IMG/VR virus record: IMGVR_UViG_3300039208_000624 | Reading direction: 5' to 3' (one strand) | Length of the DNA stretch: 64,000 nt | Source: a virus | Program-made: the position numbers and the translations under genes | In this document: piece by piece, positions 31,034 through 60,307 of the stretch | How positions within the stretch are numbered: the stretch's first letter is position 1 | Layout of the letters: each line of letters starts with the position of its first letter | Notes under the pieces: generated by a model | Databases searched by the model: none | Told to the model about the DNA's origin: nothing | Seen by the model: only the letters and a program-made list of their open reading frames with translations

Positions 31034-31714
31034 TTACAGGAACTCAGTCTCGACATAGAATCCAAAGTCGACCTTTCTACCTGCAACTCCAGGACTTGCG
31101 GACACAATCACGTGCCAATCATGTACCGTCGCCTCCGCGGTCTGATCGTTAAGGGTCAGCGACGAGTTTGACATGGCAGTGATATCGGTCCACGTAGCGT
31201 CACCTGCCGCCCCATCGGTGTCTGCCAATTGAGCCGCCTGGACCGTGATATTCGTCGCCGCTGCGGCCGATCCACCATCGCCGCCCGGAATACCCGAAGC
31301 GGCGTTGAGGCCAACACAACGGAATACGGCGTCCTGAGTCTGTACCAATTGTGCATTTGGCTCAGTAAAGCGAATAAGAAGTGTTCCCGAGTTCTGCGGG
31401 ATATCTGCAAGACCATGTCCTGTCAAAGCGATGTTGACGCCAGAAACGTCCGCATCTGTTGATCCAATAAACTTAACGTTTATCAAAGTGCCAAGGTCTG
31501 TTCCGACATTATCACAACGATGTGTTCTGTCTTGATATTGACCAATTCTTACGGGACTATTGGGTGCCCCGTTTACTCCGAAGAAGCCCACACGGTTCGG
31601 AGATGCCGTGGCCGCCTCTTCGAGATTGAAGATCTCGACCAAAGGCACAGCTCGGGTAGTAGGCGTTCCGCCCATAGCTCCGCTTGCTGCAAAGAATCTG
31701 ATTCCTGATACCAT
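31034..31714 (-). CDS. Putative virion structural protein (226 aa)
   Basis: G/A/T-rich beta composition, last gene of the tail operon, preceded by the TTAGTGTA motif. Confidence 0.65.
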   Translation of the reverse strand: MVSGIRFFAASGAMGGTPTTRAVPLVEIFNLEEAATASPNRVGFFGVNGAPNSPVRIGQYQDRTHRCDNVGTDLGTLINVKFIGSTDADVSGVNIALTGHGLADIPQNSGTLLIRFTEPNAQLVQTQDAVFRCVGLNAASGIPGGDGGSAAAATNITVQAAQLADTDGAAGDATWTDITAMSNSSLTLNDQTAEATVHDWHVIVSASPGVAGRKVDFGFYVETEFL

Positions 31715-31733
31715 GTTAATCCCTCATTATGTG

Positions 31734-31752
31734 CCGCTTAAAAGTACACTAA
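31734..31752 (-). promoter_or_regulatory. TTAGTGTA-N8-CGG motif (candidate late promoter)
   Basis: TTAGTGTA CTTTTAAG CGG; the TAG is the stop codon of 31749..33752. Confidence 0.6.
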
Positions 31753-33752
31753 TTGATATCTCGGTAGATGAAATTGATGTTATCTGTTCCCAGGAAATTG
31801 ACATCAGTTATTTCTATCATCTCTCTAACATGCCATTCTGTAGCAAGTTCCTCCAACCTCAAAAGGAACACGCTGTTAATGGCTGGCGAACTTCCACCCG
31901 TTTGACCGCTCACATTACCAAGGGCCCAGTTTCCATTCGTCACTGTAGTAGATCCAGTAACCGTCGTCATATCATATATATCGCGGATAGCCGGACCAAT
32001 AAAATTGATCACTTCTTTTGGAGTACCCAGAACTGGAATCGAGCCAGTCGCCGGAAATGTTAGCGGCAACAAAGCCACAGGTCTTTCATCATTGAAATTG
32101 AATCGTCTCACTAAAATCTGCCCATTCTCAGCAAAAATTTTAGTCTTAGAAAAGTCTTGTGCCGTAGATTCGAAAGAGTCAACAAAGTTGAAGCTTGAAT
32201 CAAAGCGAAAGATTTCCAAGTTGGATGCCGTAAAATCTATGGCATAATAGTTAGTACCATCGAAACAAAAGTCTCTTAATATCTGTGCAGAAGCCAAGGT
32301 GCTCGAAAATACATCATCCACAAAATCCAAATCGTCAGCGTTCCATCTCATGATTCCCATAGCACTGCCAGGACTGCTGCTGGAATCGTTCACCATCTTT
32401 ACGACTTGATTACCTATCAGTTCAAGACCAACAGTATCGTCTTCCCACGTGTGAGTATTGAATGCGTTGGGAGACGGACGATTATCTGCTGGACGAACCC
32501 ACAAGGCTCGGCCCGTGAATGGAGAAATCAGTGCAAGTCCAGACCCTTCGTTTACCCAGAATCCAGCATTAAGGACCTCATATCCGTCCTGAATCTGCTG
32601 AGTAACAGTATTCTTAAGCTGAAACATGCCAGATGGGGGCGGCCACGTACTGATCAATCCTGATGGCACTGCACCATTAGGAAAGTCGGCTTTTTCATTA
32701 ACAACAGCTACTCGATACACCCCCTCAGCCTTAGCTCCCGGCGTCAAGAACACTCGACTGTCAGGAACTCTGCCCCCACCATTCACAATCACTCTATCGG
32801 AAGACGACACGTAGGTGAAATGATCTACAAAATCTGTATCATAAGTGTCAGTCTCAATATCCTGAACTCCAATACGATACTTAGTATCTGCGAAAAGAAG
32901 ATCGCCATTCAACTTCATTCGTCCGGCAACTGCGTCCGATATAGTAAACTCATCCGCATTTCTACCTGCACCAATGAAGGCACTCGACTCCCTGGAATTT
33001 GTAGTAATTAGTGTGCCATTTGGCTTCTGAAACATAGGAAAGAATGGTCGAGACATGAAGCGTGCTCTTTGAGCCGCATCTATATTAGAATTGTTGTCCC
33101 TAAGATCGCTGGTGTTAGTAGACGAAATCCATGGAAAAGGATTGAACATAACTTCGCCGAAATCGCGATCGAACATCACTCCCGACCCACCAAGCGTATT
33201 AATATCGTTGGACAATACGAAAGCTGATTGAAACTCAAGAGGAAAAAAGCTCTTGATGCCAAGCGGCTGTTCCTGTCTCGCGTACGGAGTCAAGTCTCCA
33301 AACGGATCGTTCAAAGCAGCCTGACCCGAGCTACCAGGATAAAAGTTGTTCAAAACATCAGCTTCTATAGCATCATCTGTGTATTCAGTGTCATACCTCG
33401 ACCATACGTCTGACTTAAGAAATCTTCGTAAATCAACAATATAGTCGAGGACAAGAGCGGACAGCGGGCCAACCTCTGCTTTGTGAAAATCAAAATTGTC
33501 TGCACCTGGAGTTGGCTCGAAATTTGTCGAAGAGAAGTCGAAGGGGTCTGGTCCTGGGCCGGATGGATTTAGAATTTGGAAGTGATCAAGATCCATGTCG
33601 GCCAGCTCTGTTTGTCGCAAACGTCTCCTCTCAGCTACTGCTACCCACATAGCCTGTTCGATTATAAGACCCGCAACACCAGACGGAAGATCGCCCCGGA
33701 AGGGCATGGTAATATCCCACTCGTATGGCACTATTCCGGACTGAAGGACCAT
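31749..33752 (-). CDS. Putative tail/baseplate structural protein (667 aa)
   Basis: Position in the distal tail operon; helical N-terminus and beta-rich, propeller-like C-terminal part. Confidence 0.6.
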   Translation of the reverse strand: MVLQSGIVPYEWDITMPFRGDLPSGVAGLIIEQAMWVAVAERRRLRQTELADMDLDHFQILNPSGPGPDPFDFSSTNFEPTPGADNFDFHKAEVGPLSALVLDYIVDLRRFLKSDVWSRYDTEYTDDAIEADVLNNFYPGSSGQAALNDPFGDLTPYARQEQPLGIKSFFPLEFQSAFVLSNDINTLGGSGVMFDRDFGEVMFNPFPWISSTNTSDLRDNNSNIDAAQRARFMSRPFFPMFQKPNGTLITTNSRESSAFIGAGRNADEFTISDAVAGRMKLNGDLLFADTKYRIGVQDIETDTYDTDFVDHFTYVSSSDRVIVNGGGRVPDSRVFLTPGAKAEGVYRVAVVNEKADFPNGAVPSGLISTWPPPSGMFQLKNTVTQQIQDGYEVLNAGFWVNEGSGLALISPFTGRALWVRPADNRPSPNAFNTHTWEDDTVGLELIGNQVVKMVNDSSSSPGSAMGIMRWNADDLDFVDDVFSSTLASAQILRDFCFDGTNYYAIDFTASNLEIFRFDSSFNFVDSFESTAQDFSKTKIFAENGQILVRRFNFNDERPVALLPLTFPATGSIPVLGTPKEVINFIGPAIRDIYDMTTVTGSTTVTNGNWALGNVSGQTGGSSPAINSVFLLRLEELATEWHVREMIEITDVNFLGTDNINFIYRDIN

Positions 33753-36700
33753 TACTGCTCTCGGTATCTCAGGAATGCGGGACGACTGATCTGGATAAAG
33801 TTTGTAGATGCAGTTACGCCGCCTGCACTCTGGATCTGAGCATCTACAGTAGCCAAGTAACCTTTATCCCCAGAGGCAGCAAACTGCGGAAATGGCAACA
33901 CAATGCAATCGCCAAACGTAGTTCCACTTGTTATCACATTACCCAGATTATCCAACGGCTTAGCAACCGCAATAGCATTAGGAGTACCCTGTCCGCTAAC
34001 AACAATAATTTCTACTGGCGTTACTCCTGCACCGCCCTCTGCCGCTGCGGGATTAAGGAACACTCCTCCGTCACCAACTCCTGGTTTCACTGCCGCATCA
34101 CCCTGAGCGGCAAGAGTCGTCTTATCTCCAATAGACACAGTTCCATTAAGAGGAGCAATATCAAACAAAGCACGAGTAGTCCCATTACCTGCCGCAGTAG
34201 GATCAACAATAGTCACGTCAAAACTGCCCGGAGTTACGCCGGCTCTCGCGACTTCAACAATAGTGCCGTTTCCAAAAGCACGTCCCTGAGTAAAATACCT
34301 AAGAACAGTATTCCCATTCGGCAATTCAAAATTATCCACGTGGTAGAGGGCCTGATCTCCTATATTAAGGAATCCATCAACACAGATAGCACCATCAGTA
34401 AAATCCTGATTTGCTCCACCGGCCGAGTGCGGCTTTGTGTACAACTGCTGATCAATACCCCGATATCTTTCGTCTTCTGCGTCGGCAACATTGGAAGCCA
34501 GAGTAAATACGTTATTCACTTCTGTAATAGTTACTCGGACAGCACGCTGCTCTTCATCGAAGAAGAATGGGGTTGGAATCTCGTCTCCTGGCAACTGAAC
34601 GTCGAGTGGAACCCCTGGACGCTGATTGCGTAGCTCAAGATCTGTGAAATCAATTGGATTGATTATTCCATCAAGCTGTGCCCTAACCCTGTCACCAAGA
34701 GGTGCTTCTCTGCCAAATCTCGGGAAGTATGATTGAACCTTATATCGTGTAGTGAATCCATCAATACCAAACGAAATATTCACTTCATTAACGCCGTGGG
34801 AAATCTCTCCATACTGTCCCGAAGGACCAATCCCTTGGTTAGCAAAGCTGTCGAATGACAATAGCGGTAATCCGACCTGGGTGAAATCCGCGTATCTCGA
34901 CGAACTTCGAGGAACAATACGTCCAACTGCACGACGAAAAGCTCTGTCTGTCATTACCTCGATAGAAGTGTCAGAACCACGCGGAGAGAAGGCCCAAGGA
35001 ACAAACTGGTCATCAAGCTGAACATCTTCATCACGCTGGAAATGATTCACGCCAGCAACCCAATTAGTCGGATAAGTCTGGCCATATCTGGAACGAGCCT
35101 CAACTGGAATAGCAACATCGTCAAGCTGTTGATAAGCGTTCAGTACAACGGCCGGATTTATAATATCCCTGATACCTGACCCCGTCAACTTATTCCGAGT
35201 CGTCAAAAGCGTAGCCAAATTTGCAAGAGTAGAGTTCTCGGCAACGCCAGTAGACGGACCCGCATTTACTGGCAACTGGCACAATAGAGTTCCTTCTGGG
35301 AAGGATTCGAAACTGTAAAGATCGTCACTACGAGGATTGATTACTCTTTGTCCCACAACCCTCAATTCAACTGGAATGTAATGTCGACCGTCGCCAGTAG
35401 GATTAAACGGCGGAGCATCTTCTGTCCAGTTTCCAAAACTGGCTGGCACCTCATCTCCTTGCGAGCCATACGCCGTATCAGCCGGCAACACACAGTGTGC
35501 TCTAACTCGAAAATCATCAGTCACAAACGGACTAATTGGACCAAGAGCACGACTGATCTGATAATCCTCAGTGAAGATTCCGCTACCCTGAGAGCCCGAG
35601 GGAGACAACGTAAATCCCTGAACCTGGTTCTCTACATTAGCCCAAGCCGCATCAACAAGCCTGTAAAAGCCAGACGCCGAGTTAAATAAAACACCCTCAG
35701 CCACATAGCTACGTCCATAATGACGTGACGCGTGATCACGCACACGCTGAAACCAGTTGATAACCCAGTTATGCTCTTCGTCCCTCCGATTACTAATAAC
35801 GCGTAAACCATTTTCGCCATCGCCGGTACCACCTCCGGCAATAGGCTGATTGATGTCGATTCTGCTCTGAAAAGTCTCGCTTTGTGCCGAAATATGTCCG
35901 GCATCAGTTACAGCACCAAATCCTGGAGTTTGTGCATTTGGATCATTTGTCTGATACTTTTTGTAATAAGTCCACTGCTCAATTCCAGCAAGAGCCATTT
36001 GAAGCTCTGTCTCAGATGGTATATATGTTCGATACGTTCCATCCTCGTGGAAAAATCCAATCGTAAGAAGGTCCCACGCTTTAGTAAACGTAACATTACC
36101 ATCCAGTAGAGTGGTATCCAAACCATCGATAGGACTCAGTATATCCGAATTAATGAATCCCTGCTGGTGCCCGCCTAAAACTCTGAAGCGAGTTGGGTCG
36201 GAAACTATATCCTTGCCAAAGCCGATTTGGCTTGTTGTGTCGAGGCCCGAAGCACTACCAAACTCGCTGACAATGTCCAGAATATCATTCTCGGAAGGAT
36301 CAAACGGGATGCGTTTATTGATCAAGCCGATCTTCTGACTGTCCATAATCCAATACCAATCAAATCCATGGTCCTGGAATATTCTTGTTACAGCCTCATC
36401 GAGGGGTGCAAGATTGAACTGCCATCTAATGGCCTCAATAGAGCCTCCAGTGTTTCTTGACAGTTGGTCAACCGATGGCAGCTCGCTTACAGGAAGAGTA
36501 ATCTGGCCTTCGTTAAAAGATAAGTCGACTGCCGCCAAAATCTGATCGTAAGACGCACCGAATCTAAGAATTCGTTCATACTCTCGAATCAACGAATCAG
36601 ACGCGTTCCCCATATTATCTTCGAAACCATTGATCTTGCGAAAAGCTCTTGCTACAGAAACCACTCCGCTTGGAACATCCTCCCCAAGATCTTCTGTATG

Positions 36701-37084
36701 AATCTTAACGCGACGCAAGCTGCGGCGATTATCCTCAAGATTCACCTTAAAAATCGTGCCATTATTACTACTTGTGTAATCCGAGTGGGTTATGATACCC
36801 TTGAATTGGTAGTCACCAATCGCCAGCTCTAATGCTTTCCCTATATCTGGAAGCTGGCCGGAAGCACCATGAAATGCACATGGGTCTCCGCACGGAATCC
36901 ACTCTGTGTTAATCGTATGGGGCTGAAGATTAAAGCCAAAAGAGCTGTTTAAAGAAGATAGAAAAGCACAGAGCTGCGATCCTGGCTGATCATCAGCAAA
37001 CTGTCCAGACGGCCAAGCGAAACCGTTGATTGGTACGCCAACGCCGCTGACAGTAATTACATTCGGATCGAAACTTATAACCAT
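33752..37084 (-). CDS. Putative tail hub / baseplate protein (1110 aa)
   Basis: FQFKGIIT.SD....G.IFKVNLED.RRSL and HGFDWYW patterns resemble hub-like tail proteins; located downstream of the tape measure and adhesin. Confidence 0.6.
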   Translation of the reverse strand: MVISFDPNVITVSGVGVPINGFAWPSGQFADDQPGSQLCAFLSSLNSSFGFNLQPHTINTEWIPCGDPCAFHGASGQLPDIGKALELAIGDYQFKGIITHSDYTSSNNGTIFKVNLEDNRRSLRRVKIHTEDLGEDVPSGVVSVARAFRKINGFEDNMGNASDSLIREYERILRFGASYDQILAAVDLSFNEGQITLPVSELPSVDQLSRNTGGSIEAIRWQFNLAPLDEAVTRIFQDHGFDWYWIMDSQKIGLINKRIPFDPSENDILDIVSEFGSASGLDTTSQIGFGKDIVSDPTRFRVLGGHQQGFINSDILSPIDGLDTTLLDGNVTFTKAWDLLTIGFFHEDGTYRTYIPSETELQMALAGIEQWTYYKKYQTNDPNAQTPGFGAVTDAGHISAQSETFQSRIDINQPIAGGGTGDGENGLRVISNRRDEEHNWVINWFQRVRDHASRHYGRSYVAEGVLFNSASGFYRLVDAAWANVENQVQGFTLSPSGSQGSGIFTEDYQISRALGPISPFVTDDFRVRAHCVLPADTAYGSQGDEVPASFGNWTEDAPPFNPTGDGRHYIPVELRVVGQRVINPRSDDLYSFESFPEGTLLCQLPVNAGPSTGVAENSTLANLATLLTTRNKLTGSGIRDIINPAVVLNAYQQLDDVAIPVEARSRYGQTYPTNWVAGVNHFQRDEDVQLDDQFVPWAFSPRGSDTSIEVMTDRAFRRAVGRIVPRSSSRYADFTQVGLPLLSFDSFANQGIGPSGQYGEISHGVNEVNISFGIDGFTTRYKVQSYFPRFGREAPLGDRVRAQLDGIINPIDFTDLELRNQRPGVPLDVQLPGDEIPTPFFFDEEQRAVRVTITEVNNVFTLASNVADAEDERYRGIDQQLYTKPHSAGGANQDFTDGAICVDGFLNIGDQALYHVDNFELPNGNTVLRYFTQGRAFGNGTIVEVARAGVTPGSFDVTIVDPTAAGNGTTRALFDIAPLNGTVSIGDKTTLAAQGDAAVKPGVGDGGVFLNPAAAEGGAGVTPVEIIVVSGQGTPNAIAVAKPLDNLGNVITSGTTFGDCIVLPFPQFAASGDKGYLATVDAQIQSAGGVTASTNFIQISRPAFLRYREQ

Positions 37085-40000
37085 TATGGGCCTCCGCCAA
37101 GCTCGTAGAGATCAGAACCCTCAGCCAAGCTATCACACCAGATGATCCCGCGAGAATCTCGTACGCACCAGATAGGACAATATGTTCCCGGCTCTGTATA
37201 CGATCGAGTTGTATTCCTCACTATGGTCGTCTGTCCATCACCGTAGTCCAAAAGATCTGCTACGATACTTACACTATTTGGAGTGCTTTCCACATTCTGA
37301 TTGAAGGCTACAAGCAACTCAGCATTACCAGCCTGTGGGACGCCAGAAAGACCTATTACCACTGGGCTTACGCCGGAAGCCGCGTTCACCGCTATCGTAT
37401 CACAAGAATGGATTCCGTCCGAGTCGATGGCTTCAACTCGCACCATATAGAATCCCTGTCCCCCAAAACGATGCTGCACTGGATAACATCCTGCACCGCT
37501 CTGTGCCACTACAACTGGTGCACTGAAGTCTCCAAAACTCCAAGTGACCTTTTCAATTGTCTTGCCTTGCTGTCCAGAAGCCTTAGCTACAAAGTACTGG
37601 TTAAAAGGCGGAGCCAAACCGCTAACTGCTCTAAACGGCACTTCGATCTGAACGGTCGGAGGGCATTCATCTTGGAAAACTTCCGCAGTAGCATCGAAAT
37701 CACTCGAAGCAAATTGAGAAACTTGGATCAAGCTATCAAAATCTTCTGAATCTTGTACTTCGACAGTATACCCAGCGTCAAATTGAAGTCTGCCAGACAA
37801 ACCTCCAACTACATATCCACCCAAAGTTCCAGACGCCAACTCAAAACCAAGCATATGGCCGCCGACCAATCCAGAACCGGTATCAATTCCCTGAATATGT
37901 GCTCCAACAAATGAGAATGGCACAAATATACCAGAAACAAGTGCTCCAATAATTCCACTTGTACCAGTAGATCCAGCAACATAAGAGCCAATGATTCCAG
38001 ATGAAGAATCTCCTCCTCGAATGATTCCTCCTATCAAACCAGATCCAGTATCAAGCCCAAGTATATGACCACCAACTTGACCGCTCGCACCAGGAGAACC
38101 TTTTATGAGACCTCCAATGAGACCCGATCCGGTGTCAGAACTCAGCATCAAGCCTCCTAAAAGTCCGGAGGCAACATTGGCACCAAAAATCTGTCCACCA
38201 ATAATACCGCTCAGAGTTCCGCTTGCGGGTACTGCCGCTATACCATTGATCGCAATGAAAGCGACTTCTTCATCAGACATACTTCTATCAAAGTAGAAGA
38301 AATCTGTCATATAGCCATCGTTTGCTACATGAAGATTAGTCCAATCCCAAAGGCTTGTTTGCGGTGCAAAAACACTGAGAATGCGTGCCTCTGGCTCCTG
38401 CGGAACATGAAATCCACTTGCCGGCATCTTCTGAATATCGAGAGGCACTCCATTCATGTAGCAGCGTACTTGCTCATCCGCCTTGTTGTAACTCCAAGCG
38501 AAGTGATTCCAAACATCCTTATGTCCAGGAAGGAAGAATCCTTCTCGCCAAGGCTCAGCAATATCAGGTGTATCTGATCCATTCCTTATGCTTACGCGAT
38601 ATACTCCACAATCAACCTGTCCTGCTTTTGCGGCATTATGCGTGCTTTGATCCCAGTACATTCCACCTTCTGTAGAAAGCACCAAACGCATATTCTCGCC
38701 CTCATCAAAAATGATGGCCCACGACGAGTCCGTGAATGTTGTGCTAAAAGCCGTCCCGGGAACTATTCCATAAGAAGCAAAAACTCTAACGTCATTAGTG
38801 CTTGTGTTTGATCGAGTGCACGCCCAAAACCCTACTGAGAATCCATCATTAGGAGTATCAAAAGCCGCTCCTGAAACAACAAATGGTGCAACAACATTAG
38901 CATCAGCCATTGCATTTGCGTTATATGTAATGCCACTCGCCTGAGTATTCAAACTTGCATTTGTAAACGGTCCAGGAACAAATCTCAAGTTATGTGCAGC
39001 ATTATCCTGGCTACTAAACAGATTCTTTTCCGATACTTCTTGTGCAAGACCTCGCAAGTCATTCTGCTTAAGACTAAGATCTTTGATACCAGACGAACCT
39101 CCGCCAGAGAATCTCCAATATCCCTGTATATTTGGATCGCCCTGCGTAACCGCTTGAACAAAACTGGTGGATTGTGAATAACCAGCAGGAACAGTCGAAG
39201 TATCCAAACCATTCGTAGCAATGTCAGAAACTTCCGCAGTAGAAAATATACCATTCATTACGAAAACATTTCTCATGAATATATCGCCCAAACCTCCATC
39301 AAGATTGATGTCAGTTGTCGTACTACTGCCAGCAAGAATGCCGCCAATCGTTATAGCCGCATCATCGCCCGTCCCAACATTACCATCACTATTAAACCTC
39401 GAATCTTCTGCACCAATTCTACGAGACTGAACGGGAGTGCCGTTGATATACAGAGTAAAATGTACTGGCTCCAGTCCGCCGTCATTCAAAGATTGCTCAT
39501 CTTCTCCGCGAATATGAAGAGCTACTCTTGAAGGAACTCCAAATGGTAGGTTTCCAGAAACAATCGGCGTAGTTTGCGTACCAAAAGTATTCTCAGTACC
39601 AGCGAAAACAATAGAAACCCCTGATGGTCCTGTGCCCGCATCTTGCCCAAGCGGATCAGGATTATCCGCATTAATTGAAGTTAAGAATGCATAGCCCGCG
39701 TCTGCCGCGACTGTTGCCCACGCATAAAGCATGGAGTTGTGTCTTTGGCCATTCTGACAATGTAGCGTTGGCGGGATATTGCCGCTGGGCGTTACCTCGA
39801 ACGAAATAATACACTGATTGTAATAATGCGGCCCACCATCATCGCGGTCTTCAACCCAAGGCTTCAATCTCTGATGAGGAACACCAATCTGAGATTGTCT
39901 TGATGAAGTTAGGTGTGCTGCATTACCAAGACTGCCAGCAGAAGCACACCACATGCCGGAGGTAAATCCGAGGTTTCCAAAGCTTTGAAGCTCAGGAGGC

Positions 40001-42400: not shown

Positions 42401-42440
42401 CTTGTACTCCTTTACCGAGAACTAAGCCGTGGCTACGTCC

Positions 42441-42459
42441 CAATTAAGGAGTACACTAA
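42441..42459 (-). promoter_or_regulatory. TTAGTGTA motif (variant downstream box)
   Basis: TTAGTGTA CTCCTTAA TTG(GG), overlapping the U-tail of the terminator. Confidence 0.5.
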
Positions 42460-42489
42460 AACAGCCCGCAGACTCAAATCCACGGGCTG
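42458..42489 (-). terminator. Rho-independent terminator after the 61-aa gene
   Basis: CAGCCCGTGGA-TTTGAG-TCTGCGGGCTG (11-bp stem with two G-U pairs) followed by TTTT. Confidence 0.75.
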
Positions 42490-42748: not shown

Positions 42749-42767
42749 TCGAAGTATACTACACTAA
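42749..42767 (-). promoter_or_regulatory. TTAGTGTA-N8-CGA motif (candidate late promoter)
   Basis: TTAGTGTA GTATACTT CGA; the TAG is the stop of 42764..43408. Confidence 0.6.
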
Positions 42768-43408: not shown

Positions 43409-43578
43409 TAGACCATCTTCATTTTCCTGGCCAATTCCAAAGCTTCGTCGTCCGGCAGTGGAACCCAAGTACCCGCATAATATTGGGCGAATATTAATCG
43501 TCTATTCAGCTCAATAAGCCTGACTCCTCTTGGCAACTGCGGCTCATCTTTCTTTTCAATTCTTAGATTGATTTCCAT
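43408..43578 (-). CDS. Small hypothetical protein (56 aa)
   Basis: Not in the ORF track. MEINLRIEKKDEPQLPRGVRLIELNRRLIFAQYYAGTWVPLPDDEALELARKMKMV; TAATG overlaps at both ends. Confidence 0.65.
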   Translation of the reverse strand: MEINLRIEKKDEPQLPRGVRLIELNRRLIFAQYYAGTWVPLPDDEALELARKMKMV

Positions 43579-46730: not shown

Positions 46731-49700
46731 TAGATTGATTGTCCAAGACTACTAAGCTGACTGTTCTCTCGAAGAACCCCCAATGCCACCTCGATTTGCT
46801 CCAAAACAGGATCAAGCTGTGCTGCAATCTGCTCAGAAGCGGCAGACTGAATTGCTGCCTCGATCTCGGTCCTAAGATTCTCCAGTCCAGTAACAGTTAC
46901 ACTACTTTGCTGGTTAGTTGTGACATCAATAGCCACGTTGCCGCCTGCTCCTGCGGCTCCCGGAGTGTTTCCGGTATCGGCAGCAGCCGCCGTAGTGGCA
47001 GAGGTAGTCTCAATGTTCGACAAGCTTGTAATGGCTGTATCCAAGAGATTGGCCACATCATCAAGCTTGTCATTAGTCATACGGGACTGCTCAAGCTGAT
47101 CCTGTCCATCACCATTATCGACGTCGGTAAGTGCCTGAGTAACCGATCGGGCAATCGCTGCCACAACCGTTTCATTGATTCCCTTGATGCTCTCAATGCC
47201 AGCCGCAATATCACTGCCGCCCTGGAAGTTCGGCACGTGACCCTTGTTTCGAGTCGGAATGATGATCTCGGAATCATTGGCAACAGCCAATCCGGCACCG
47301 CCCGGCATCGCACGCTTCTCTCGTGCCGCCGCCTGAATCAATCCTGATATTTCGTCCAGCGACAAGTTTCCGCCAGCAAAGTTCGGAATAAATCCCTTCG
47401 CACCATTTCCTACTGCGGCACCAAGCACTCCGGCTCTGGCACCAGCAAGACCCCTGATAGCCTGAACGATGTTGTCGCCGATAGCGGCAAAAGCAGAGTT
47501 TTGCTCCCTGAACAGCTCGGCTTCACGAGTAATCAAGTTCAAAGTATCCTGACTGCCCGCCTGAATGATCTGATCAGTAAGCTGATTCTGCAATGCTTGT
47601 GCAGACTGCAAAACGCTTGTCTGCTCAAGAACGGCAAGCTGCACGCCCATGAGATTTTCGCGAGCACGCTCTTCTGCAATCTCGGCTGCGTCCAACTGTT
47701 CCTTGGCTGCATCCAACTGCTCGCGAGCCGCGAACAACTGACCAAACTGAAGCTCTGCATCTCTTTCGGCAAGACCCTGCAATCTTTCAAGCTGGGCAAC
47801 TTGCTGCTGAGTAAGATCCTCAATAGAGGGAAGACCAATACCTGCTCCGGCCCCAGCACCAAGCTGGCCGATAGCCGTCTCAAGCTGCTCAACGCTAAAG
47901 CCCCCGATGTCCACACTGCTCGGCAGCAAATTGAGAGCATCAAGAATCTGTCGGCGGAATTCGACTGGCAGATTGAGAAGCTCATTCCCAAGCTGATTTA
48001 TATTGCTGTCCGACAGGCCCAAGAATGACTCGAAAGATCCGCCCAATCTCTGGGCGATCATCTCAAGTCCCTGGATTCCCGTCTGCAATGCGGCGTTCTC
48101 TTCGCCCGTCTGGCCGAATACAGTCAGTCCAGCATTAACAATCTCGCCTTTCGCCTGCTCCAGAAAAGCGATTGTCTCTTCGGCCAACTGACGCTCAAGC
48201 TCTATACGCTTTTGCAGTGTAAGATTTGAATCCTCAAGAACAGAATTGAAAGACCTATTCAGTCCGGTCAGTCGACCTTGGAATGTCGAAACTTCTCCGG
48301 TCAGATTTGCAATCTCTGTACCGATCAGATTGGATTCGATTCGTCCTTCGGCTACCACGTCATTGAATTCAAGGACGGCACGGTTGAAGTCAAAGAATGC
48401 GTCAGAAAGATTCTGCGTGCTGGATAGCACATCCTGCTGTGCCGACTTCAGATCGCTCTGAGCACTTGCCACCTGATCAAGGCCGGACTGCTGCTGATCC
48501 TGAATAAATCTATCAAGCTCAACTCTGGACTCTCCAAGAGTCTGATTAAACTTACGCTGTGCCTTCTCCAGCTCCTCAAGAGCCTGGATTCTTTTCTTTT
48601 CTTCTTCTGCAAGCTTCTTTTGCTGATCAAACTGTGCCTGAACACGCTTGATAGTAAGCTGCAAACGCTCCTCGTCTCGTGAGCGAATCAAGTCCGCAAT
48701 CTTCTGCTCTAACTTTTCCCTATTCTTAAGAGCCTCATCCAAGGCAACTCCACCAGCCTGACGACGACCTCCGGCCTGTGCATCTTGGATGCTGCTATTA
48801 AGTGCGTCGAGCTGTGCTTTGTACGCATCAATCGTAGTGGCCGAAGCCATAAGTGATGCCTTCAGCTTCTCGTTGGCTTGGGTGATAGGATCACCAGCAA
48901 TAATCTTGACAAACCTTTCAATCTCTGCCGTAGCACTTATAGTTCCATCCAGAATTCCTTGGATCTGTGAGCCATCAAATCCCTGCAAATCATTTATAAG
49001 ATTGCCTCCAAGGGCTCCTCCAATACGGATGAGCTGATCGTTGAATTTGATTACCCCTTCCGCAGCCTTCTCTGCTGCCTCTCGTTCCTGATTTGCAAGC
49101 TTAATTCTTTCTTCTGCACGAATGCGGGCCTCTTGGAGATCAAGCTCCTTTGCATCCTTCTCAAGCTCAACAGACTGCACAACAGCCTTAATGATATTAT
49201 TTACTTGCTGTGAAGTAAACTGGCTTAGACTAAGAACCTCGGGCCTAAGTAGATTTTTGATATCGTCAATACCCTGAACAACCTCTGGTCCCGCCGTATC
49301 AACGATGTTGCGTACGGCATCAGCAAGCGATTGTCCTGCCGCCTGATTCCCAGTATCAGAAATGGCATCGGACAGAGTCTTAAATGAATTAGCAGTCTTA
49401 ATAGCGACAATCTGACTCTCAGTTTGAATTGCTTGTAAGCGTTCCTGAGTAGTAGGATCAAAACCAAGATCCTGATTGGCCAACTCCGCATTCAGTGAAT
49501 CAAGCTCCGCACGCAGCTCTGTAGCAACGTTACGAAGGTTGGCAAGCGGCCTAACCACATTTTGATCAAACTCAAGACTATCAAGACGACGCTGGACAGC
49601 TCCTGTTGCCGTCTCAACCGTATTGAGTGGACGAATGACATCATCACCAATCTGAGCAAACAAGTTCCGGATCAAGAAGACTGCACGGTTAACGCCGCTA

Positions 49701-51826
49701 AGATCTACGTCTGCATCACGTAGAGCATTATCAAAGCCGTCAATGAATTCTTGTGCGGCATCAGCTCCACCCAATCTTTGCTCTGCAAGCTTGTCGGCAA
49801 TCTGAGGTAGAATCTGGGCACCCAAGGAGCTTCGAGCAATTTGCTCAAGAACCTGTGGGGACAACCCCGCCTTGTCTGGATCAAGCTCAATGTTCTCTGT
49901 TAATAGTTTGACGAATTCATCGGGATCAAAGTTGCCAAAAGCGTCAACAGTTCGGGATAGTGCATTTTCAATGTCGGCAAATGCCTCTCCACCTTGCAAT
50001 GCACTTCGTCTGAATTCATTTAGTGCTTGTGCAGTTCTTTCATTTTCCTCAATATCAGCAAGCTGCTGACTACGCTCCTCAAAGAACTTGGCAAGATCAG
50101 TACCACTTTGAATAATGGCAGTGAAGGAACCCGCAACGAGACCGGCCTTCGCACTGATCAGTCCGAACGATAAGCCTGTGTTTAGGGCGTTTGAGCCGAT
50201 GTCATCAAAGCTCTTCAGAGTGTCACCAAATACGCTGTCACTCTCTCCAAACCTGTCGGTCAGAACCTTGGTAACTGTATTTAGTGTTACCATAGCGGCA
50301 GCTATCAAGCCAACCTTGCCAGCCGTAGTATTGAATGCATCGGAAGCCTGGATCGCAGCTCCAATCAATCTACGCTTCGCGGTTACTTGAGTAGCAGAAG
50401 TAGTATTAAGCAAGTTGATCTGAGTTACTGCACGACCGAGCTGCTGGTTAAAGCCCTTGAAGTTACTGCCACCCCCGCCACCAGATCCACCAGATCCGCG
50501 GGCACCGAATATAGAACGACCTGCGGCTACTGCACCTACGAGACCAAGCGGACCAAGAGACGCACCGAGTCCGTCAGCAAGACCAACAATGGCCTGCAAT
50601 CCTTTGGCAAGCTGATTAGCTGCTTCTACCGCACTACGGAAGAAATCAAGAATTCCTGACTGACCAAGAACACCCGCCAGCTTTTGAAACTCGCCAATTG
50701 TCTGCTGAATTTGGAAGCCAAGTCCCTTCTGTACTACTGCAAGTTTCTCATCGGAAGTGCCCTGAGCTTCTGACGCTATGGCTGTCAGCTCGTTTGCACG
50801 CTCAAGAGAATTGAGGGTAGCAGTCAGAGACTCAAACTGACGAACACCGGCAATAGACTTAGCGGCCGAGGCTGCTTGGGCCTCAGTAAGACCGTCAAAG
50901 GCCGTCTTCAAATCATTAAGAACGTCAAGGGTGGGTCTCAGTGAACCATCAAGATTTTCAACAGAAACTCCCAGTCCCTCTACCGCATCTCGGGCTTCGC
51001 CAGCAGCGAACAGTCGAGTCTGCAAAGTCTTAAAGAATGTACCGACTTCACGTCCAGACTTACGTGTCTGCTCAGTAAGAGCGGCAACCAACGAAACAGA
51101 GTCTTCGAAGCTCTTGGCGAACTCGGCCAGAGCATTACCGCCAGTACGGAAGGCTTCTGCCACATCCTGGGCGTTAACAGCAGCAGAGTCCTCGACCTTG
51201 GCCAAGACGTCAACTGCTACAGATGTGTTTTCTACTTCGTCGCGGAACTGCTTGGATACCTGAATCAAAAGTTCTTGTGCCTGAGCCAGCCCCAAAGTAG
51301 TAACCTGAGAAGCCAACGTGGCTTTCTCAGCATTTTCAAACGCTTCTTCAATACTGAAGCCAGCCTGCTTGAATACCCTGACAGTATCCGCAACCTCTTC
51401 TACGCTGGCACCAAGATTAATACCGATACGGAAGATGTTCTCGGCCAAGAATCCAAACTGATCGCTAAGACCCTGAATATCAATTCGGATAATTTTCAGA
51501 AGCTGTTGCTCGAAATCCACAAGAAACTTGGCACCGCCTTGAATAGAACGATTAAGAGTTGCAAAAGCTGGCAATAGCACGGCGAACTGAGCCATACGCT
51601 GCAAAAACGTTCTTGCCGCATTGGACATTGATCCAACATTGCGGGCGGTTACAGCAGTAGTCTTATTAGCCTTCTGCATCTGACGATTTACATCATCAGT
51701 GTGACGTACGGTTTGCTTGAGGTTAACATTGATACCGGCAGTAAGCTGACTAAGCTGTCTGAAAACAGCCTGATTAACCTGAACGCCAGTCAGTCTTAGT
51801 ATGGCATCAAGTTGTACAGCGGCCAT
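46730..51826 (-). CDS. Tail tape measure protein (1698 aa)
   Basis: TP901-type core (DFEQQL..I.R..., EEVADTVRVFKQAGFS, AEAFRTGG, KSGREVGTFFKTLQTRL, IAGVRQF), long A/L/Q/E-rich helical body. Confidence 0.93.
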   Translation of the reverse strand: MAAVQLDAILRLTGVQVNQAVFRQLSQLTAGINVNLKQTVRHTDDVNRQMQKANKTTAVTARNVGSMSNAARTFLQRMAQFAVLLPAFATLNRSIQGGAKFLVDFEQQLLKIIRIDIQGLSDQFGFLAENIFRIGINLGASVEEVADTVRVFKQAGFSIEEAFENAEKATLASQVTTLGLAQAQELLIQVSKQFRDEVENTSVAVDVLAKVEDSAAVNAQDVAEAFRTGGNALAEFAKSFEDSVSLVAALTEQTRKSGREVGTFFKTLQTRLFAAGEARDAVEGLGVSVENLDGSLRPTLDVLNDLKTAFDGLTEAQAASAAKSIAGVRQFESLTATLNSLERANELTAIASEAQGTSDEKLAVVQKGLGFQIQQTIGEFQKLAGVLGQSGILDFFRSAVEAANQLAKGLQAIVGLADGLGASLGPLGLVGAVAAGRSIFGARGSGGSGGGGGSNFKGFNQQLGRAVTQINLLNTTSATQVTAKRRLIGAAIQASDAFNTTAGKVGLIAAAMVTLNTVTKVLTDRFGESDSVFGDTLKSFDDIGSNALNTGLSFGLISAKAGLVAGSFTAIIQSGTDLAKFFEERSQQLADIEENERTAQALNEFRRSALQGGEAFADIENALSRTVDAFGNFDPDEFVKLLTENIELDPDKAGLSPQVLEQIARSSLGAQILPQIADKLAEQRLGGADAAQEFIDGFDNALRDADVDLSGVNRAVFLIRNLFAQIGDDVIRPLNTVETATGAVQRRLDSLEFDQNVVRPLANLRNVATELRAELDSLNAELANQDLGFDPTTQERLQAIQTESQIVAIKTANSFKTLSDAISDTGNQAAGQSLADAVRNIVDTAGPEVVQGIDDIKNLLRPEVLSLSQFTSQQVNNIIKAVVQSVELEKDAKELDLQEARIRAEERIKLANQEREAAEKAAEGVIKFNDQLIRIGGALGGNLINDLQGFDGSQIQGILDGTISATAEIERFVKIIAGDPITQANEKLKASLMASATTIDAYKAQLDALNSSIQDAQAGGRRQAGGVALDEALKNREKLEQKIADLIRSRDEERLQLTIKRVQAQFDQQKKLAEEEKKRIQALEELEKAQRKFNQTLGESRVELDRFIQDQQQSGLDQVASAQSDLKSAQQDVLSSTQNLSDAFFDFNRAVLEFNDVVAEGRIESNLIGTEIANLTGEVSTFQGRLTGLNRSFNSVLEDSNLTLQKRIELERQLAEETIAFLEQAKGEIVNAGLTVFGQTGEENAALQTGIQGLEMIAQRLGGSFESFLGLSDSNINQLGNELLNLPVEFRRQILDALNLLPSSVDIGGFSVEQLETAIGQLGAGAGAGIGLPSIEDLTQQQVAQLERLQGLAERDAELQFGQLFAAREQLDAAKEQLDAAEIAEERARENLMGVQLAVLEQTSVLQSAQALQNQLTDQIIQAGSQDTLNLITREAELFREQNSAFAAIGDNIVQAIRGLAGARAGVLGAAVGNGAKGFIPNFAGGNLSLDEISGLIQAAAREKRAMPGGAGLAVANDSEIIIPTRNKGHVPNFQGGSDIAAGIESIKGINETVVAAIARSVTQALTDVDNGDGQDQLEQSRMTNDKLDDVANLLDTAITSLSNIETTSATTAAAADTGNTPGAAGAGGNVAIDVTTNQQSSVTVTGLENLRTEIEAAIQSAASEQIAAQLDPVLEQIEVALGVLRENSQLSSLGQSI

Positions 51827-55040: not shown

Positions 55041-56459
55041 TTAGAACAATCCGAAGTCGCTTCGCTTAAACGAGTCGCCACCCACGTTGAATCGACTGTT
55101 TCCAGTTTCGAACAACACGATGCGATGGTTCGGCTGATAAAAGTCGTGAGACACGTTAAACACGTTGAAGGTCGTATAGTTGTAAGTGACGGTCATATTG
55201 TCGCCACCGGCATCTCCGCCGGCCATATCAACGCTTGTCAAGCGGCTCGTGTCACCCAGGTCAACCTGAAGACCGTCACAAGTTCTGATAATGACGGACT
55301 GACTGGACTGAGTGTTGTCGGGTCCACAGTCGATCGCCGAAGTAGCATCAATCAAATCGCCTTGAGCAGTGATAACTTCGATAGTTGTCGTCACTTCAAT
55401 GGGGAAGGAAACAACCTTGGCAAACGGACGTTTCGATCCAAGCTCGAAGATATCGTCACGACCGATAGTGGCAGAAACAGTGATCGTCTGAACATGTTCA
55501 GCGATATTATCCGTATTGGCATCACCAATCAACTGACTGACACCGCCAGCCGTTCCCGGTCCCTGAGTACCAAATCCACCATTCACAAATGCGTTGTCGA
55601 CGCCAGAAGCGACAAAAGTTGTAACGCCTGGAATATCGTCCGGGAGAACCGAACGACGAATATCGACTTCTTCGCGACGCTGGATACCAGAACCGACCAC
55701 TATGACGCCGAATCGATCGTTTCCACCTGCAATTTCGGCAGCACCACCTTCAACCAAAGTTGAAGTCAAGCCGTCGTTACCGAAGTGACCAGAAGGAAGA
55801 CCTTCAGGAGCATTTGGATTATTGCCAAGAGCATCATCTGGCCAAATTACCAAAGGCTCTCCACCACCCTGGCCACCATTATGGCCAGCAGTAATACCAG
55901 AGATCGCCTGGAATGTGCCCCAGATCTTGTCGTTGCCAACCAGAGTAATATCTTCCGTTACGAATCCATCAATCGGGAACGTATATGAAATATTCGACAC
56001 ATACATTCCAGAAGCCGTAACAATAGAGATAGGACGTCCGGTTGCACGGAACTGACTGTCAGGATAGATCTGCATCGCGACATCAACCCGGTACACATTA
56101 GTACGAGCAATAATGTCGTTCTGCTGAGTAGGATCAGTTACCATGAAGAAGAGAGGCTTTGCACCGTCAATGGCTTTCGAAAGCGTCATCTCAATATCAG
56201 GCTGTCTTTCCGAGTATTCGTAAAGCTCAACCTGACCAATCTGGAACACCTGCTCCAGATTAAAGTTTGTTGTCATGCCGGCAGACTGAAGCCCTCGGGG
56301 GACCTCCCATACGCCGCCGACCTCATCAATTCCAGAGGCGAGAGGGCCGTTCGCGTATTCACGGGAGTTGCGTGGGGCAACCGTCGAAGTTGCCGCTGCC
56401 GCATTATCCTTGATAGCGACTTGCTCAATCGCCCAAAAGACACGATTGTTGGTTACCAT
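55041..56459 (-). CDS. Putative major tail (tube) protein (472 aa)
   Basis: GLQSAGMTTNFNLEQVFQIGQVELYE, IFELGSKRPFAKVVSFPIEVTTTIEV; own TTAGTGTA motif, strong RBS and terminator (signs of an abundant protein); upstream of the chaperones and TMP. Confidence 0.7.
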   Translation of the reverse strand: MVTNNRVFWAIEQVAIKDNAAAATSTVAPRNSREYANGPLASGIDEVGGVWEVPRGLQSAGMTTNFNLEQVFQIGQVELYEYSERQPDIEMTLSKAIDGAKPLFFMVTDPTQQNDIIARTNVYRVDVAMQIYPDSQFRATGRPISIVTASGMYVSNISYTFPIDGFVTEDITLVGNDKIWGTFQAISGITAGHNGGQGGGEPLVIWPDDALGNNPNAPEGLPSGHFGNDGLTSTLVEGGAAEIAGGNDRFGVIVVGSGIQRREEVDIRRSVLPDDIPGVTTFVASGVDNAFVNGGFGTQGPGTAGGVSQLIGDANTDNIAEHVQTITVSATIGRDDIFELGSKRPFAKVVSFPIEVTTTIEVITAQGDLIDATSAIDCGPDNTQSSQSVIIRTCDGLQVDLGDTSRLTSVDMAGGDAGGDNMTVTYNYTTFNVFNVSHDFYQPNHRIVLFETGNSRFNVGGDSFKRSDFGLF

Positions 56460-56502: not shown

Positions 56503-56521
56503 CCGCCTATTACTACACTAA
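56503..56521 (-). promoter_or_regulatory. TTAGTGTA-N8-CGG motif (candidate late promoter)
   Basis: TTAGTGTA GTAATAGG CGG; the TAG is the stop of 56518..57543. Confidence 0.65.
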
Positions 56522-57543
56522 ATGGCAGTATCCCCAAGCGGTGGCAATTCCCTGATAGGACTAAATACGTGCCCGAGTGGCGTAGTAGGTGCATTAAGAT
56601 AAGTTACGACCTGATATTGCACCATAGCCTTTTCGTATTCCTCGTCAGCGGGCATATTTCTGGCGACAGACTCATCAATGTAAGATATCAGTCTGATCGG
56701 AACACCTGATCCTACGGTAGTTACCGTAACGTTATTTCTAACAAGCTCTTGGTAAGGATGATACTCTGGAGAAATCGCATTAAGTATTCCGGAAAGAGGA
56801 AGTGGCATCTTATTAAAGTCAATTAATGGCACTGACTTTCTATCCTGTCCCGTAAGCACATCAACGATATTATCTCTCGTCATATCGTCGAGAGCCCAGA
56901 TATGAAGATTAACTGTGTCTGTTGTAACCAAGCTTCTATTACCAAGCTCATAAGGCTCAGCAGTACGACGATCAACCTCAATGAAAATTGCAGGGAATGG
57001 ATAAGCATTTCCAGATGGATAGACAATCTGCATAGAAGTCAAGGGGTTTGTCATATACTGACTTTCCAATAAACCATCTCTGGCTTGCTGGTTAAATCTA
57101 TGCTCAAAATCTATACGAACCTCTCGATATGCAAATTCTGCCTGAACCTTTAGACCAAGTGATTGAGGATTGTTAAAAATGATTCTTCCATTGAGATAAT
57201 CAATAGTATGACCAAACGTGGGATCATTCGCCGCACGAAAAGCACCTTCAACAAAAATTCCTGACGCAAGAGTCGGCGGAACCACTACATTCGTTCCATC
57301 AATAGGAACTCCAGATTCATAGATCCACTCCCTAAACGGAGACTGCCAAACTTGACCTACGCCAACTCCTACAAGCTGTTTATGAGCCTCAGTATCAGGC
57401 AACAGTAAGCTCATGTCATTTCCATCGTAGAACATTTGCCCGCTGCCAACGTTTGAGAAGCAACCCTCTCGTAAAAAGTGGTGATCAAGAAAAAATTTGT
57501 AATTTAGCTTGAGCTGTGCTCTACGTTTAAAACTAAGAGACAT
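56518..57543 (-). CDS. Putative tail completion/terminator protein (341 aa)
   Basis: C-terminal FPAIFIEV....PYELG......V.LHIWALDD.TRDNIVDVL resembles tail terminators; position just before the tube gene. Confidence 0.55.
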   Translation of the reverse strand: MSLSFKRRAQLKLNYKFFLDHHFLREGCFSNVGSGQMFYDGNDMSLLLPDTEAHKQLVGVGVGQVWQSPFREWIYESGVPIDGTNVVVPPTLASGIFVEGAFRAANDPTFGHTIDYLNGRIIFNNPQSLGLKVQAEFAYREVRIDFEHRFNQQARDGLLESQYMTNPLTSMQIVYPSGNAYPFPAIFIEVDRRTAEPYELGNRSLVTTDTVNLHIWALDDMTRDNIVDVLTGQDRKSVPLIDFNKMPLPLSGILNAISPEYHPYQELVRNNVTVTTVGSGVPIRLISYIDESVARNMPADEEYEKAMVQYQVVTYLNAPTTPLGHVFSPIRELPPLGDTAI

Positions 57544-58933: not shown

Positions 58934-59289
58934 TAGAGATGCATCCTTTTGCTCGCTTCAACAATCGCTTTCTTGATAGCAAGCACCTTAGCCCTTCGAT
59001 TCTTAAAAGGACCCTCAATATCTATCTCTTTGATAAGCCTGTCGAGAACAACTTCGGGAGTGATCTTTCCAAGCTCTTTATAAGTAAAAGCAATCATACT
59101 AAAGGGCTTTTCAAACAAAAGCTTGAGATATGCCTCCCTATACGTAGCCTCTTTTAAACAAGTTCTACGATTCATCTTGTAAGTGTGCATATCAACATCT
59201 GTGGGCGGCATACCTGTATGACTACCGTGAATCTTGTAGGAACCTATATACAAAATCCCGTTTGGTTCTTTATAGTGAACTAATACCAC
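58933..59289 (-). CDS. Hypothetical protein (118 aa)
   Basis: Operon-coupled basic ORF. Confidence 0.55.
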   Translation of the reverse strand: MVLVHYKEPNGILYIGSYKIHGSHTGMPPTDVDMHTYKMNRRTCLKEATYREAYLKLLFEKPFSMIAFTYKELGKITPEVVLDRLIKEIDIEGPFKNRRAKVLAIKKAIVEASKRMHL

Positions 59290-59429
59290 TTACGTAATTC
59301 TTTCTTTGTCCTCTGACGTTCCCGAGACTTGTACGTCTTTCGATTTTTCTTCCTGGCTCCCCAATCAGGGGAGTTGCAGCAATAACAGTATGGTCCACGA
59401 TTATCCAACTTGAGTCCATATGGCCTCAT
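59280..59429 (-). CDS. Small basic protein (49 aa) with CxCC motif
   Basis: Not in the ORF track. MRPYGLKLDNRGPYCYCCNSPDWGARKKNRKTYKSRERQRTKKELRKWY; TAATG-coupled to the upstream gene and fills the gap. Confidence 0.6.
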   Translation of the reverse strand: MRPYGLKLDNRGPYCYCCNSPDWGARKKNRKTYKSRERQRTKKELRKWY

Positions 59430-60307
59430 TACCACACCATCTTTCCGAAGTTACCACTGTTCCGGCTCAGGAATGCCTTAATGGCTTCATCTAACTCTTG
59501 CTTACGCATCTCAGCATCAAACTTAGCGAGATTAACACGAGCATTCAGACGACCGCCCTGAATGGTAACATTCACATTATCTGCATTTGTTACGCTGATT
59601 CCATCTCGCGAAGCTGCTTGTGCAAGAGAAGCAAATGGTCCGCTACCAACAGACGCACCGAGTCTCTTAAGTGCTGAAATCTCACTTGATACGATGATAT
59701 ATTCCATCTGCAAGATCACAAGGTCGCAAACCTCGTCATTGTTTGGCGTCAACGTACCAGCCTCGATATCAACAACAATAGGAGTGACGCGGATTCTTCT
59801 GCCACCGAACTGACCTTCAATCCCCGTTGGTCCTCGGAATGCTACCGCCGTGCCGAGCTTTTGATTGAGTCTCCGAGTTGCCTTTGTCAGTGCTCTCGAC
59901 AAAAATCCATCATCGAACACGATGCCGTCTGGATCTCCCAGATCGATCCGGACTGCCTCATAAATTGACCCTGTTTTATCAGAGCCAGGCACAAATCCTA
60001 TCTTTACATTTACATCTTGTACACAGAATTGTTCAGTAGCCTGCAAATGAGTCATCGCCGCCGTGATGATGTCCCATTCTACTCGCCAGTTGCCAATCTC
60101 GAACCCTGCCGGAATAACTCCTGTTCCTGTATACTTACCAAGAGAAGGATTTGCCGCCACGCCGCTGGCCGCCTGCATGCCTGCGGCATCAACCAGCTTA
60201 AATCCAACGAAGTGTCCGCTAACGGAGGCAGAATTCGCATCTGTCAAAAAGATGTCCAATTGAGCTGCGTTCGAGCCCACAAGAAGTGTTTTAGTTTCGC
60301 CGGACAT
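59429..60307 (-). CDS. Putative head-tail adaptor (neck) protein with N-terminal beta domain (292 aa)
   Basis: AVRIDLGDPDG..FDDGFLSRAL (adaptor-like helical start) preceded by an Ig-like N-terminal part; downstream of the capsid gene. Confidence 0.55.
   Translation of the reverse strand: MSGETKTLLVGSNAAQLDIFLTDANSASVSGHFVGFKLVDAAGMQAASGVAANPSLGKYTGTGVIPAGFEIGNWRVEWDIITAAMTHLQATEQFCVQDVNVKIGFVPGSDKTGSIYEAVRIDLGDPDGIVFDDGFLSRALTKATRRLNQKLGTAVAFRGPTGIEGQFGGRRIRVTPIVVDIEAGTLTPNNDEVCDLVILQMEYIIVSSEISALKRLGASVGSGPFASLAQAASRDGISVTNADNVNVTIQGGRLNARVNLAKFDAEMRKQELDEAIKAFLSRNSGNFGKMVW

Follow-up and report, generated by a model that had tools for sequence, protein, structure and literature searches.

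In a 64,000-nt stretch (the window, in what follows) of the IMG/VR virus record IMGVR_UViG_3300039208_000624, which spans 67.8 kb as a whole (G000), the proteins of the distal tail carry a Ser-Gly (SG) motif of the form [A/P]-S-G-[I/V/L] far more often than their composition predicts. This enrichment, which confirms the original prediction that SG is concentrated in the tail proteins of this phage, is robust, is conserved among relatives and is restricted to the outer adsorption apparatus and to host-recognition proteins. It is tempting to speculate that the motif marks a site where the serine is O-modified, with a glycan made by the phage's own glycosyltransferases (GTs) as the leading candidate; we put the probability of this reading at roughly 0.4. 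A purely structural role, in which the motif is simply a preferred tight turn, has to be weighed against it.

Ser-Gly enrichment in the distal tail

The distal-tail set analyzed here consists of the seven proteins encoded within positions 31034-46730, and expected counts were derived from each protein's own composition. Their genes, together with those of the other tail and neck proteins used for comparison, are as follows (SG and GS are dipeptide counts; h is a hydrophobic residue).

45231..46730, minus strand: 499-aa distal-tail/hub protein; 12 SG (3.3 expected), 5 GS; four tube-fold modules (beta-sheet plus helix) in its AlphaFold2 (AF2) model
44666..45220, minus strand: 184-aa tail protein; 5 SG (1.8 expected), 1 GS; distant paralog of the 234-aa protein (23% identity)
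42764..43468, minus strand: 234-aa beta-sandwich tail protein with a TTG start; 7 SG, all followed by a hydrophobic residue, 2 GS
37084..41943, minus strand: 1619-aa adhesin with LamG_3 and PKD domains; 39 SG (19.1 expected), 20 GS
37768..38223, minus strand: 14-residue tandem repeat (SG-h-h-G-G...) at about residues 1241-1392 of the adhesin, holding about 12 of its 39 SG
33752..37084, minus strand: 1110-aa distal tail/fibre protein; 13 SG (7.9 expected); no Pfam match
31749..33752, minus strand: 667-aa distal tail/fibre protein; 9 SG (4.1 expected); no Pfam match
31034..31714, minus strand: 226-aa protein encoded by the final gene of the tail module; 5 SG (1.6 expected), 2 GS
56518..57543, minus strand: 341-aa neck/tail protein; 6 SG (1.3 expected, p=0.002), 2 GS; weak DUF2460 match
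55041..56459, minus strand: 472-aa tail-tube-like protein; 6 SG (3.7 expected; observed/expected ratio [O/E] 1.63, not significant alone), 2 GS
46730..51826, minus strand: 1698-aa tape measure, negative control; 8 SG (9.3 expected), 11 GS

The pooled set of seven proteins contains 90 SG where 40.5 are expected (O/E 2.22; shuffle z 8.5; Poisson p 1.5e-11), and the highest count reached in 5000 shuffles was 61. The signal is most evident for S-G-[IVLF], with 54 occurrences against 10.4 expected (z 13.6). SG ranks first among all 400 dipeptides in this set, the runner-up having a z of 3.2, and the O/E values of related dipeptides stay close to or below unity (GS 1.13, TG 0.78, NG 1.04, DG 0.89). 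Elsewhere in this phage, the SG O/E is 1.11 in nonstructural proteins and enzymes, 0.86 in the tape measure and 1.56 in the head/neck/tube set; taken individually, the tube (p=0.16) and a 292-aa protein (p=0.07) are not significant. The SG/GS counts of the controls are 8/11 for the tape measure, 8/5 for DnaE and 2/0 for the capsid.

The counts that the original prediction had made by hand were reproduced almost exactly, including its figure of 27 of 35 SG followed by V, I, L or F in five small proteins, and the signal turned out to be stronger than it had stated. Its view that richness in serine and glycine alone is not an obvious cause was likewise borne out by the shuffles and by the GS control. 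Its contrast between the tail proteins and the tape measure, which it placed in the tail lumen, holds only as far as the counts go: SG is indeed not enriched there, but since tape measures are largely alpha-helical, with few turns, the contrast is a weak argument for exposure.

An artifact arising from composition, a tandem repeat, paralogous domains, or a hexamer or codon-pair bias in the DNA could in principle mimic such a signal, given that the proteins are rich in S and G, that about 12 of the adhesin's SG come from one repeat and that the 184-aa and 234-aa proteins are paralogs. Yet the shuffled maximum lies far below the observed count and GS is not enriched. Removing the 14-aa repeat of the adhesin leaves 78 SG against 35.8 expected (z 7.7; 7.1-7.7 across maskings). 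BLAST relates only the 184-aa and 234-aa proteins (44666 and 42764) to each other, which speaks against further paralogy or hidden repeats, and the sites are aperiodic except in the adhesin repeat. At SG sites, all six serine codons (TCN and AGY) and all four glycine codons are used in background proportions, so that selection acts on the protein and not on a DNA word, and a DNA-level cause can be ruled out. We therefore regard an artifact of any of these kinds as hardly credible.

To define the shape of the motif, we analyzed the residues flanking SG in the tail proteins of six genomes of the lineage, where SG reaches a density of 20 per 1000 aa, compared with 5.1 elsewhere in the same genomes. 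The residue after SG is I, V, L, F or M in 52% of cases, against a background of 27% and against 21-32% after TG, NG, DG, AG and GG, and the residue before it is A or P in 32% of cases, against a background of 12%. The unit is thus [A/P]-S-G-[I/V/L], often with a second hydrophobic residue after it. Acidic residues (D/E) are not enriched at any position from -4 to +5 around SG; position -1 favors A, P, V or G and position +1 favors I, V or L.

Comparison with other phages showed that the motif was added and not swapped for another. SG with a hydrophobic residue after it occurs 11.7 times per 1000 aa in a set of 147 SG-rich tail proteins but 2.5 times in SG-poor relatives and 1.9 times in T4, T5 and lambda, whereas Asp-, Asn- and Thr-Gly-hydrophobic have similar densities in all three sets (1.0-1.8 per 1000 aa). 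Serine has therefore not simply been put where others use Asp or Asn; instead, these proteins have gained roughly one extra copy of the motif per 100 residues, and the extra SG units make up most of their excess serine and glycine. For the same reason, a replacement of labile Asn-Gly or Asp-Gly by Ser-Gly in favor of particle longevity finds no support: DG and NG remain at the same densities, and SG comes on top of them. Nor is the motif a generic trait of tail proteins, as is evident from the SG-poor relatives and from the model phages, whose SG O/E is 1.47 in the lambda distal tail, 1.11 in the T4 baseplate, 0.96 in the T4 long fibres and 1.26 in the T5 distal tail. The tails of these three phages prefer Asp-Gly and Asn-Gly, as ordinary beta-turns would, and, like ordinary proteins, favor Asp or Asn before the turn glycine at least as much as Ser.

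Conservation and distribution among relatives

The serines of SG sites are conserved well beyond other serines of the same proteins. In the two closest relatives, 105 of 139 SG serines are kept, compared with 248 of 689 other serines (p 1e-17). This difference persists where the proteins have diverged, as in the adhesin, which at 39% overall identity retains 31 of 39 SG serines and only 32 of 110 others. Across the 4-29 orthologs available per protein, with 22 for the 184-aa protein, serine is kept in 64% of residues at SG sites against 32% for other serines, and Thr replaces it in only 4.7% of ortholog residues against 12.4%. In the 234-aa protein, S142 is invariant and S153-G154 nearly invariant among 19 orthologs. 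The few SG of the tape measure are not conserved in relatives. Taken together, these alignments indicate that the SG sites are under strong purifying selection.

The motif is widespread in the lineage. The family of the hub protein has 220 unnamed metagenomic representatives, with an SG O/E of 2.4-2.7 down to about 27% identity and of about 1.6 in the most distant members. Of the 46 related loci compared, the distal module is SG-rich in about 30 (O/E 2.0-3.0, z 6-11, SG always rank 1) and SG-poor in about a dozen that are more distant (O/E 0.7-1.5). Three intermediate or sister lineages enrich both SG and TG (1.5-2.0), with DG and NG at 0.7-1.15. Outside the tail, the SG O/E of six related whole genomes is 1.05-1.22, and the individually significant open reading frames (ORFs) cluster in the tail module; the SG-rich ORFs that lie outside it carry an endosialidase-type tail-spike domain in one case and a discoidin domain in another. 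The motif is thus restricted to the outer adsorption apparatus and to host-recognition proteins.

We found no sign that the SG-poor relatives use a shifted sequon, as no other dipeptide is enriched in them except for a Thr-Thr run in one locus. This locus, L025 (genome G023), has 80 Thr-Thr in its distal tail module against 32.9 expected (z 8.2), probably owing to a Thr-rich linker or a mucin-like stretch in a tail protein.

Modified serine or structural turn

Structure prediction places the SG sites in diverse surroundings. The AF2 model of the hub protein (predicted local distance difference test [pLDDT] 75) gave weak Foldseek matches to tail tube, Dit and Hcp folds, and that of the 234-aa protein (pLDDT 75, predicted template modeling score 0.76) gave weak pilin-like matches. 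The original prediction expected the sites to map to exposed turns. In the secondary-structure strings of the two models, most of the 19 SG lie in loops or at strand ends, and three lie inside predicted helices or strands. The contexts range from a helix N-cap to a hairpin turn, a loop before a strand and low-confidence loops. Judging by these models and the domain matches, the motif appears to span at least four unrelated folds: the tube-fold hub, the pilin-like sandwich, LamG and PKD.

A motif that is aperiodic, specific for a hydroxyl residue, added to its carriers, found only in the outer apparatus and present in unrelated folds favors recognition by a factor acting in trans. The lineage has added the [A/P]-S-G-[I/V/L] loop-to-strand motif to its hub, baseplate-like proteins, adhesin, fibres and spikes; in the reading that we favor, an enzyme acting in trans would recognize the motif and modify the serine oxygen in the cytoplasm before or during tail assembly. 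If that enzyme is a GT of the phage, a set of three conserved GTs might start the glycan on the SG serines and the more variable genes of the sugar island (332-18755) might extend it. The modified serine, the nature of the glycan and the enzyme responsible are what we infer here from sequence. The genes in question are the following.

16938..18755, minus strand: 605-aa GT4-like GT of the GT-B type, with a zinc ribbon (CxxC...CxxC) inserted just ahead of the EX7E region and a DUF4214 at the C-terminus
14084..16950, minus strand: 372-aa GT2 (14084-15202), a 164-aa ORF and a 415-aa GT4-like GT (15703-16950); the two GTs and the 605-aa GT form the conserved trio
332..13179, minus strand: variable part of the island, with five more GT-domain genes, a sugar-1-phosphate nucleotidyltransferase, a HAD phosphatase, two methyltransferases, an IMPDH/GMP-reductase-like gene and an RF-1-domain gene

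Altogether, the island encodes eight GT-domain proteins (GT1/GT4 or GT2), the nucleotidyltransferase, the phosphatase and the two methyltransferases. Eight of the approximately 11 GTs of the original prediction are thus backed by a Pfam domain; the genes at 1749, 2608 and 4206, which it took to be GT-A-like, have no match in either Pfam or NCBIfam. The only NCBIfam matches of the island were generic GT4 ones below threshold. That all near-complete relatives encode GTs is in line with a glycan made by the phage. Being one of only nine genes common to all six full genomes, the 605-aa GT is a candidate for the modifying enzyme, and this conserved protein with its metal-finger insertion merits separate study. 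Island genes beyond the 605/415/372-aa trio vary even between close relatives, most of them being present only in the closest ones. This layout, a conserved core with a changing periphery, resembles that of O-antigen or capsule loci.

In its most far-reaching form, the glycosylation reading would have a lineage-wide, Ser-specific turn sequon direct the cytoplasmic O-glycosylation of the whole adsorption apparatus, with the trio priming and the peripheral GTs and methyltransferases diversifying the glycan. This would amount to about 90 sites per distal-tail set, and more per virion, and to a phage analogue of an O-antigen coat. We consider this extended form less likely than not.

Several observations weigh against glycosylation of the SG serines. 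The pairing of motif and GT island proposed in the original prediction finds no support across relatives, since the number of GT1 and GT2 matches shows no correlation with SG enrichment (Spearman 0.0, n=11). As none of the near-complete relatives lacks GTs, there is no GT-less control. The conserved trio occurs in SG-rich and SG-poor genomes alike, including the complete genome G024, which has four GT1 and four GT2 matches and a tail-module SG O/E of 1.40, although G024 is not free of SG: a 1262-aa discoidin protein adjoining its hub holds 30 SG against 13.5 expected. The complete genome G041 shows the highest SG enrichment of all (3.0) with few GT matches, and the peripheral GTs differ between genomes that are equally SG-rich. 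A phyletic-profile search (blastp across six genomes, with limited sensitivity) returned tail proteins only and no enzyme specific to the SG-rich clade. The GTs themselves are generic GT4 and GT2 types without a protein-GT signature, and they could serve the modification of DNA or of the host surface instead. Further points on this side are the three of 19 SG sites predicted inside helices or strands and the mild SG enrichment of lambda (1.5-1.9) in its distal-tail, tape measure and head/neck/tube sets; to our knowledge, the lambda virion is not known to be glycosylated. Finally, the sequence P/A, S, G, hydrophobic looks like a type I turn with a G1 bulge, and the very high positional conservation together with the poor tolerance of Thr would also fit a steric, structural role.

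In a type I turn with a G1 bulge (a 3:5 hairpin loop), P, A, E or K is preferred at i+1, D, N, S or T at i+2 and G at i+3, after which the strand begins. The motif is like this turn in its 32% of A/P at -1, its 52% of hydrophobic residues after Gly and the location of its sites at loop and strand boundaries in the AF2 models. Accordingly, P/A-S-G-hydrophobic might merely be the tight turn into a beta-strand that this lineage prefers, either a G1-bulge type I turn or a loop capped by Ser, never modified and repeated in many short hairpins and solenoid coils. The canonical look of the turn, the strong conservation of position and the missing link to the GT repertoire make this explanation a serious contender, nearly as likely as modification of the serine. 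It would also account for the distant homologs, which often keep the Gly while the preceding residue varies (S, T, N, P, Q), and for the 14-aa solenoid of the adhesin, with one SG per coil. What it leaves unexplained is the choice of residue and of place. Unlike in ordinary use of the G1 bulge, Ser is almost exclusive here, at 5-6 times the usual density, and DG and NG, with O/E of about 1 or below, are neither enriched nor depleted in absolute density, so that Ser has not simply replaced them. In the SG-poor relatives, T4, T5 and lambda, folds of these kinds get by with 5-6 times fewer SG-hydrophobic motifs. The sites occur in unrelated folds and in contexts as varied as a helix N-cap, a hairpin, a loop and the inside of a helix, and the motif is absent from the phage's own non-tail proteins. 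A lineage-specific reason for the preference would thus still be needed.

Alternatively, the factor acting in trans might not be a GT. The serine might be phosphorylated, acylated or ADP-ribosylated, or the motif might be bound by an assembly chaperone or contact a polymer on the host surface, with the GT island serving the DNA or the host envelope. This would agree with a motif that is added, aperiodic, hydroxyl-specific and confined to the outer apparatus, and also with the absent link to GT content. On the other hand, no kinase, acyltransferase or ADP-ribosyltransferase-like gene tracks the SG-rich clade in the six-genome blastp search and none appears in the Pfam scans of the window, and we know of no precedent for such a motif in phage tails. 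We therefore consider it improbable.

Should the serines prove to be glycosylated, phages would have their first virion glycosylation system defined by a sequon, and a broad aquatic lineage would join the few mycobacteriophages in glycosylating virions. The large, variable and unexplained GT islands of many big environmental phages would gain a function, and glycosylated virion proteins could be predicted from sequence via the motif. A coat of glycans on the adsorption apparatus would matter for host recognition, for particle stability and for evasion of recognition by hosts or grazers. If the motif is purely structural, it would represent a striking lineage-specific building rule that holds across unrelated folds, and a useful marker of outer tail proteins in unannotated phage genomes.

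Known systems and genome context

The proposed sequon [A/P]-S-G-[I/V/L] appears to be previously undescribed, and our literature search found no paper on a Ser-Gly acceptor in phage proteins. By analogy, the closest working counterpart would be the autotransporter heptosyltransferase family. Its members TibC and AAH heptosylate Ser and not Thr, including Ser-313 in the ...QNSGGAVI... stretch of the AIDA-I beta-helix (PMC4358343). There, a cytoplasmic GT-B enzyme hyperglycosylates a beta-rich adhesin (TibA or AIDA-I) at many serines, one of which, the mapped Ser-313, lies in an S-G turn with hydrophobic strand residues after it (PMC4358343). The low rate of Thr at the SG sites (4.7%) would be in keeping with a similar restriction to serine, and the 605-aa GT also has a four-Cys insertion in its C-lobe. 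The acceptors, unlike TibA and AIDA-I, comprise many unrelated folds instead of one periodic beta-helix. Unlike in TibC, PF01075 (Glyco_transf_9) is absent from G000, G001, G009 and G013 and occurs only in G041, and the sequence of the 605-aa GT is not similar to that of TibC. On both counts, the phage does not belong with the BAHT family of GT9-fold heptosyltransferases with an iron-finger insertion. In G041, giant multidomain GTs are encoded about 5 kb downstream of the tail module (G041:C1:75094-81291, loci L080-L081): one of 590 aa with GT2 and GT9 and one of 1228 aa with GT2, GT9 and GT1, GT9 being the heptosyltransferase family.

Among phages, the nearest parallel lies in mycobacteriophages, in which, according to Freeman et al. 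in 2023, phage-encoded GTs reportedly glycosylate virion proteins in the host cytoplasm; the eight GT-domain proteins of the window resemble that situation. In those phages, the subunits of the capsid and the tail tube bear the glycans at their C-termini (PMC12619734). In contrast, the candidate sites described here are internal turns of distal-tail and fibre proteins, with only 2 SG in the capsid and a tube that is not significant.

The original prediction had also drawn on glycosaminoglycan attachment in eukaryotes, where, as proposed here, the Ser of a Ser-Gly is the O-glycan acceptor (of a xylosyltransferase). Glycosaminoglycan sites need nearby acidic residues and often read SGxG. This analogy did not hold, as the flanks are A/P and I/V/L and not acidic, and no enzyme related to the glycosaminoglycan xylosyltransferase was detected in this analysis. 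Neither does the motif correspond to the O-glycosylation sequon of Bacteroidota, D-(S/T)-(A/I/L/V/M/T), since its -1 position holds P or A instead of D and Thr is disfavored. Giant viruses and chloroviruses encode the glycosylation of their own capsid and fibril proteins by means of many GTs, sugar-nucleotide enzymes and methyltransferases that act in the cytoplasm without lipid-carrier machinery, and the virus-encoded cluster in the window is similar in content. Chloroviruses attach N-linked glycans at atypical Asn sequons, and the hosts are eukaryotic; we know of no Ser-Gly sequon described for either group.

The source phage, an uncultured one, was found in a single study of an aquatic metagenome, and a search for RNA or proteome data on it returned none; by the CheckV estimate, G000 represents about 37% of a genome. 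All genes of the window lie on the minus strand, in the order capsid, neck, the 472-aa tube-like protein, chaperone-like genes, the 1698-aa tape measure, the distal-tail module, replication genes including DnaE, and the sugar island. Searches with the structural proteins gave few matches: none in PHROGs for nine of them, none among cultured phages for the tube protein, a single weak one among cultured phages for the capsid (the major head protein of Bacillus phage G), and in Pfam no more than the LamG_3 and PKD domains of the adhesin and a weak DUF2460 match of the 341-aa protein. The Phage_tube_2 and Phi812 tube families are found in the language-model neighbours of the 472-aa protein. Related contigs in IMG/VR extend to 150-186 kb, the size of the complete genomes, some with direct terminal repeats, and the complete relatives encode a long tube protein like that of T5 and tape measures with lengths of 1700-3300 aa. 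The group consists of large uncultured aquatic siphophages without a cultured relative.

Three further genes of the window stand out by their position. The paralogous genes for the 184-aa and 234-aa tail proteins are separated by a free-standing LAGLIDADG homing-endonuclease gene (43578-44603, minus strand), which encodes no SG and has no counterpart at that position in the relative L001. Inside the sugar island, an RF-1-domain protein of 129 aa, resembling the ArfB peptidyl-tRNA hydrolase, is encoded at 11781-12170 (minus strand) and also occurs in G001, G013 and G024. The IMPDH/GMP-reductase-like gene (7490-8569, minus strand; E 2e-95), situated among the GT genes, is kept in G001, G009, G013, G041 and G024.

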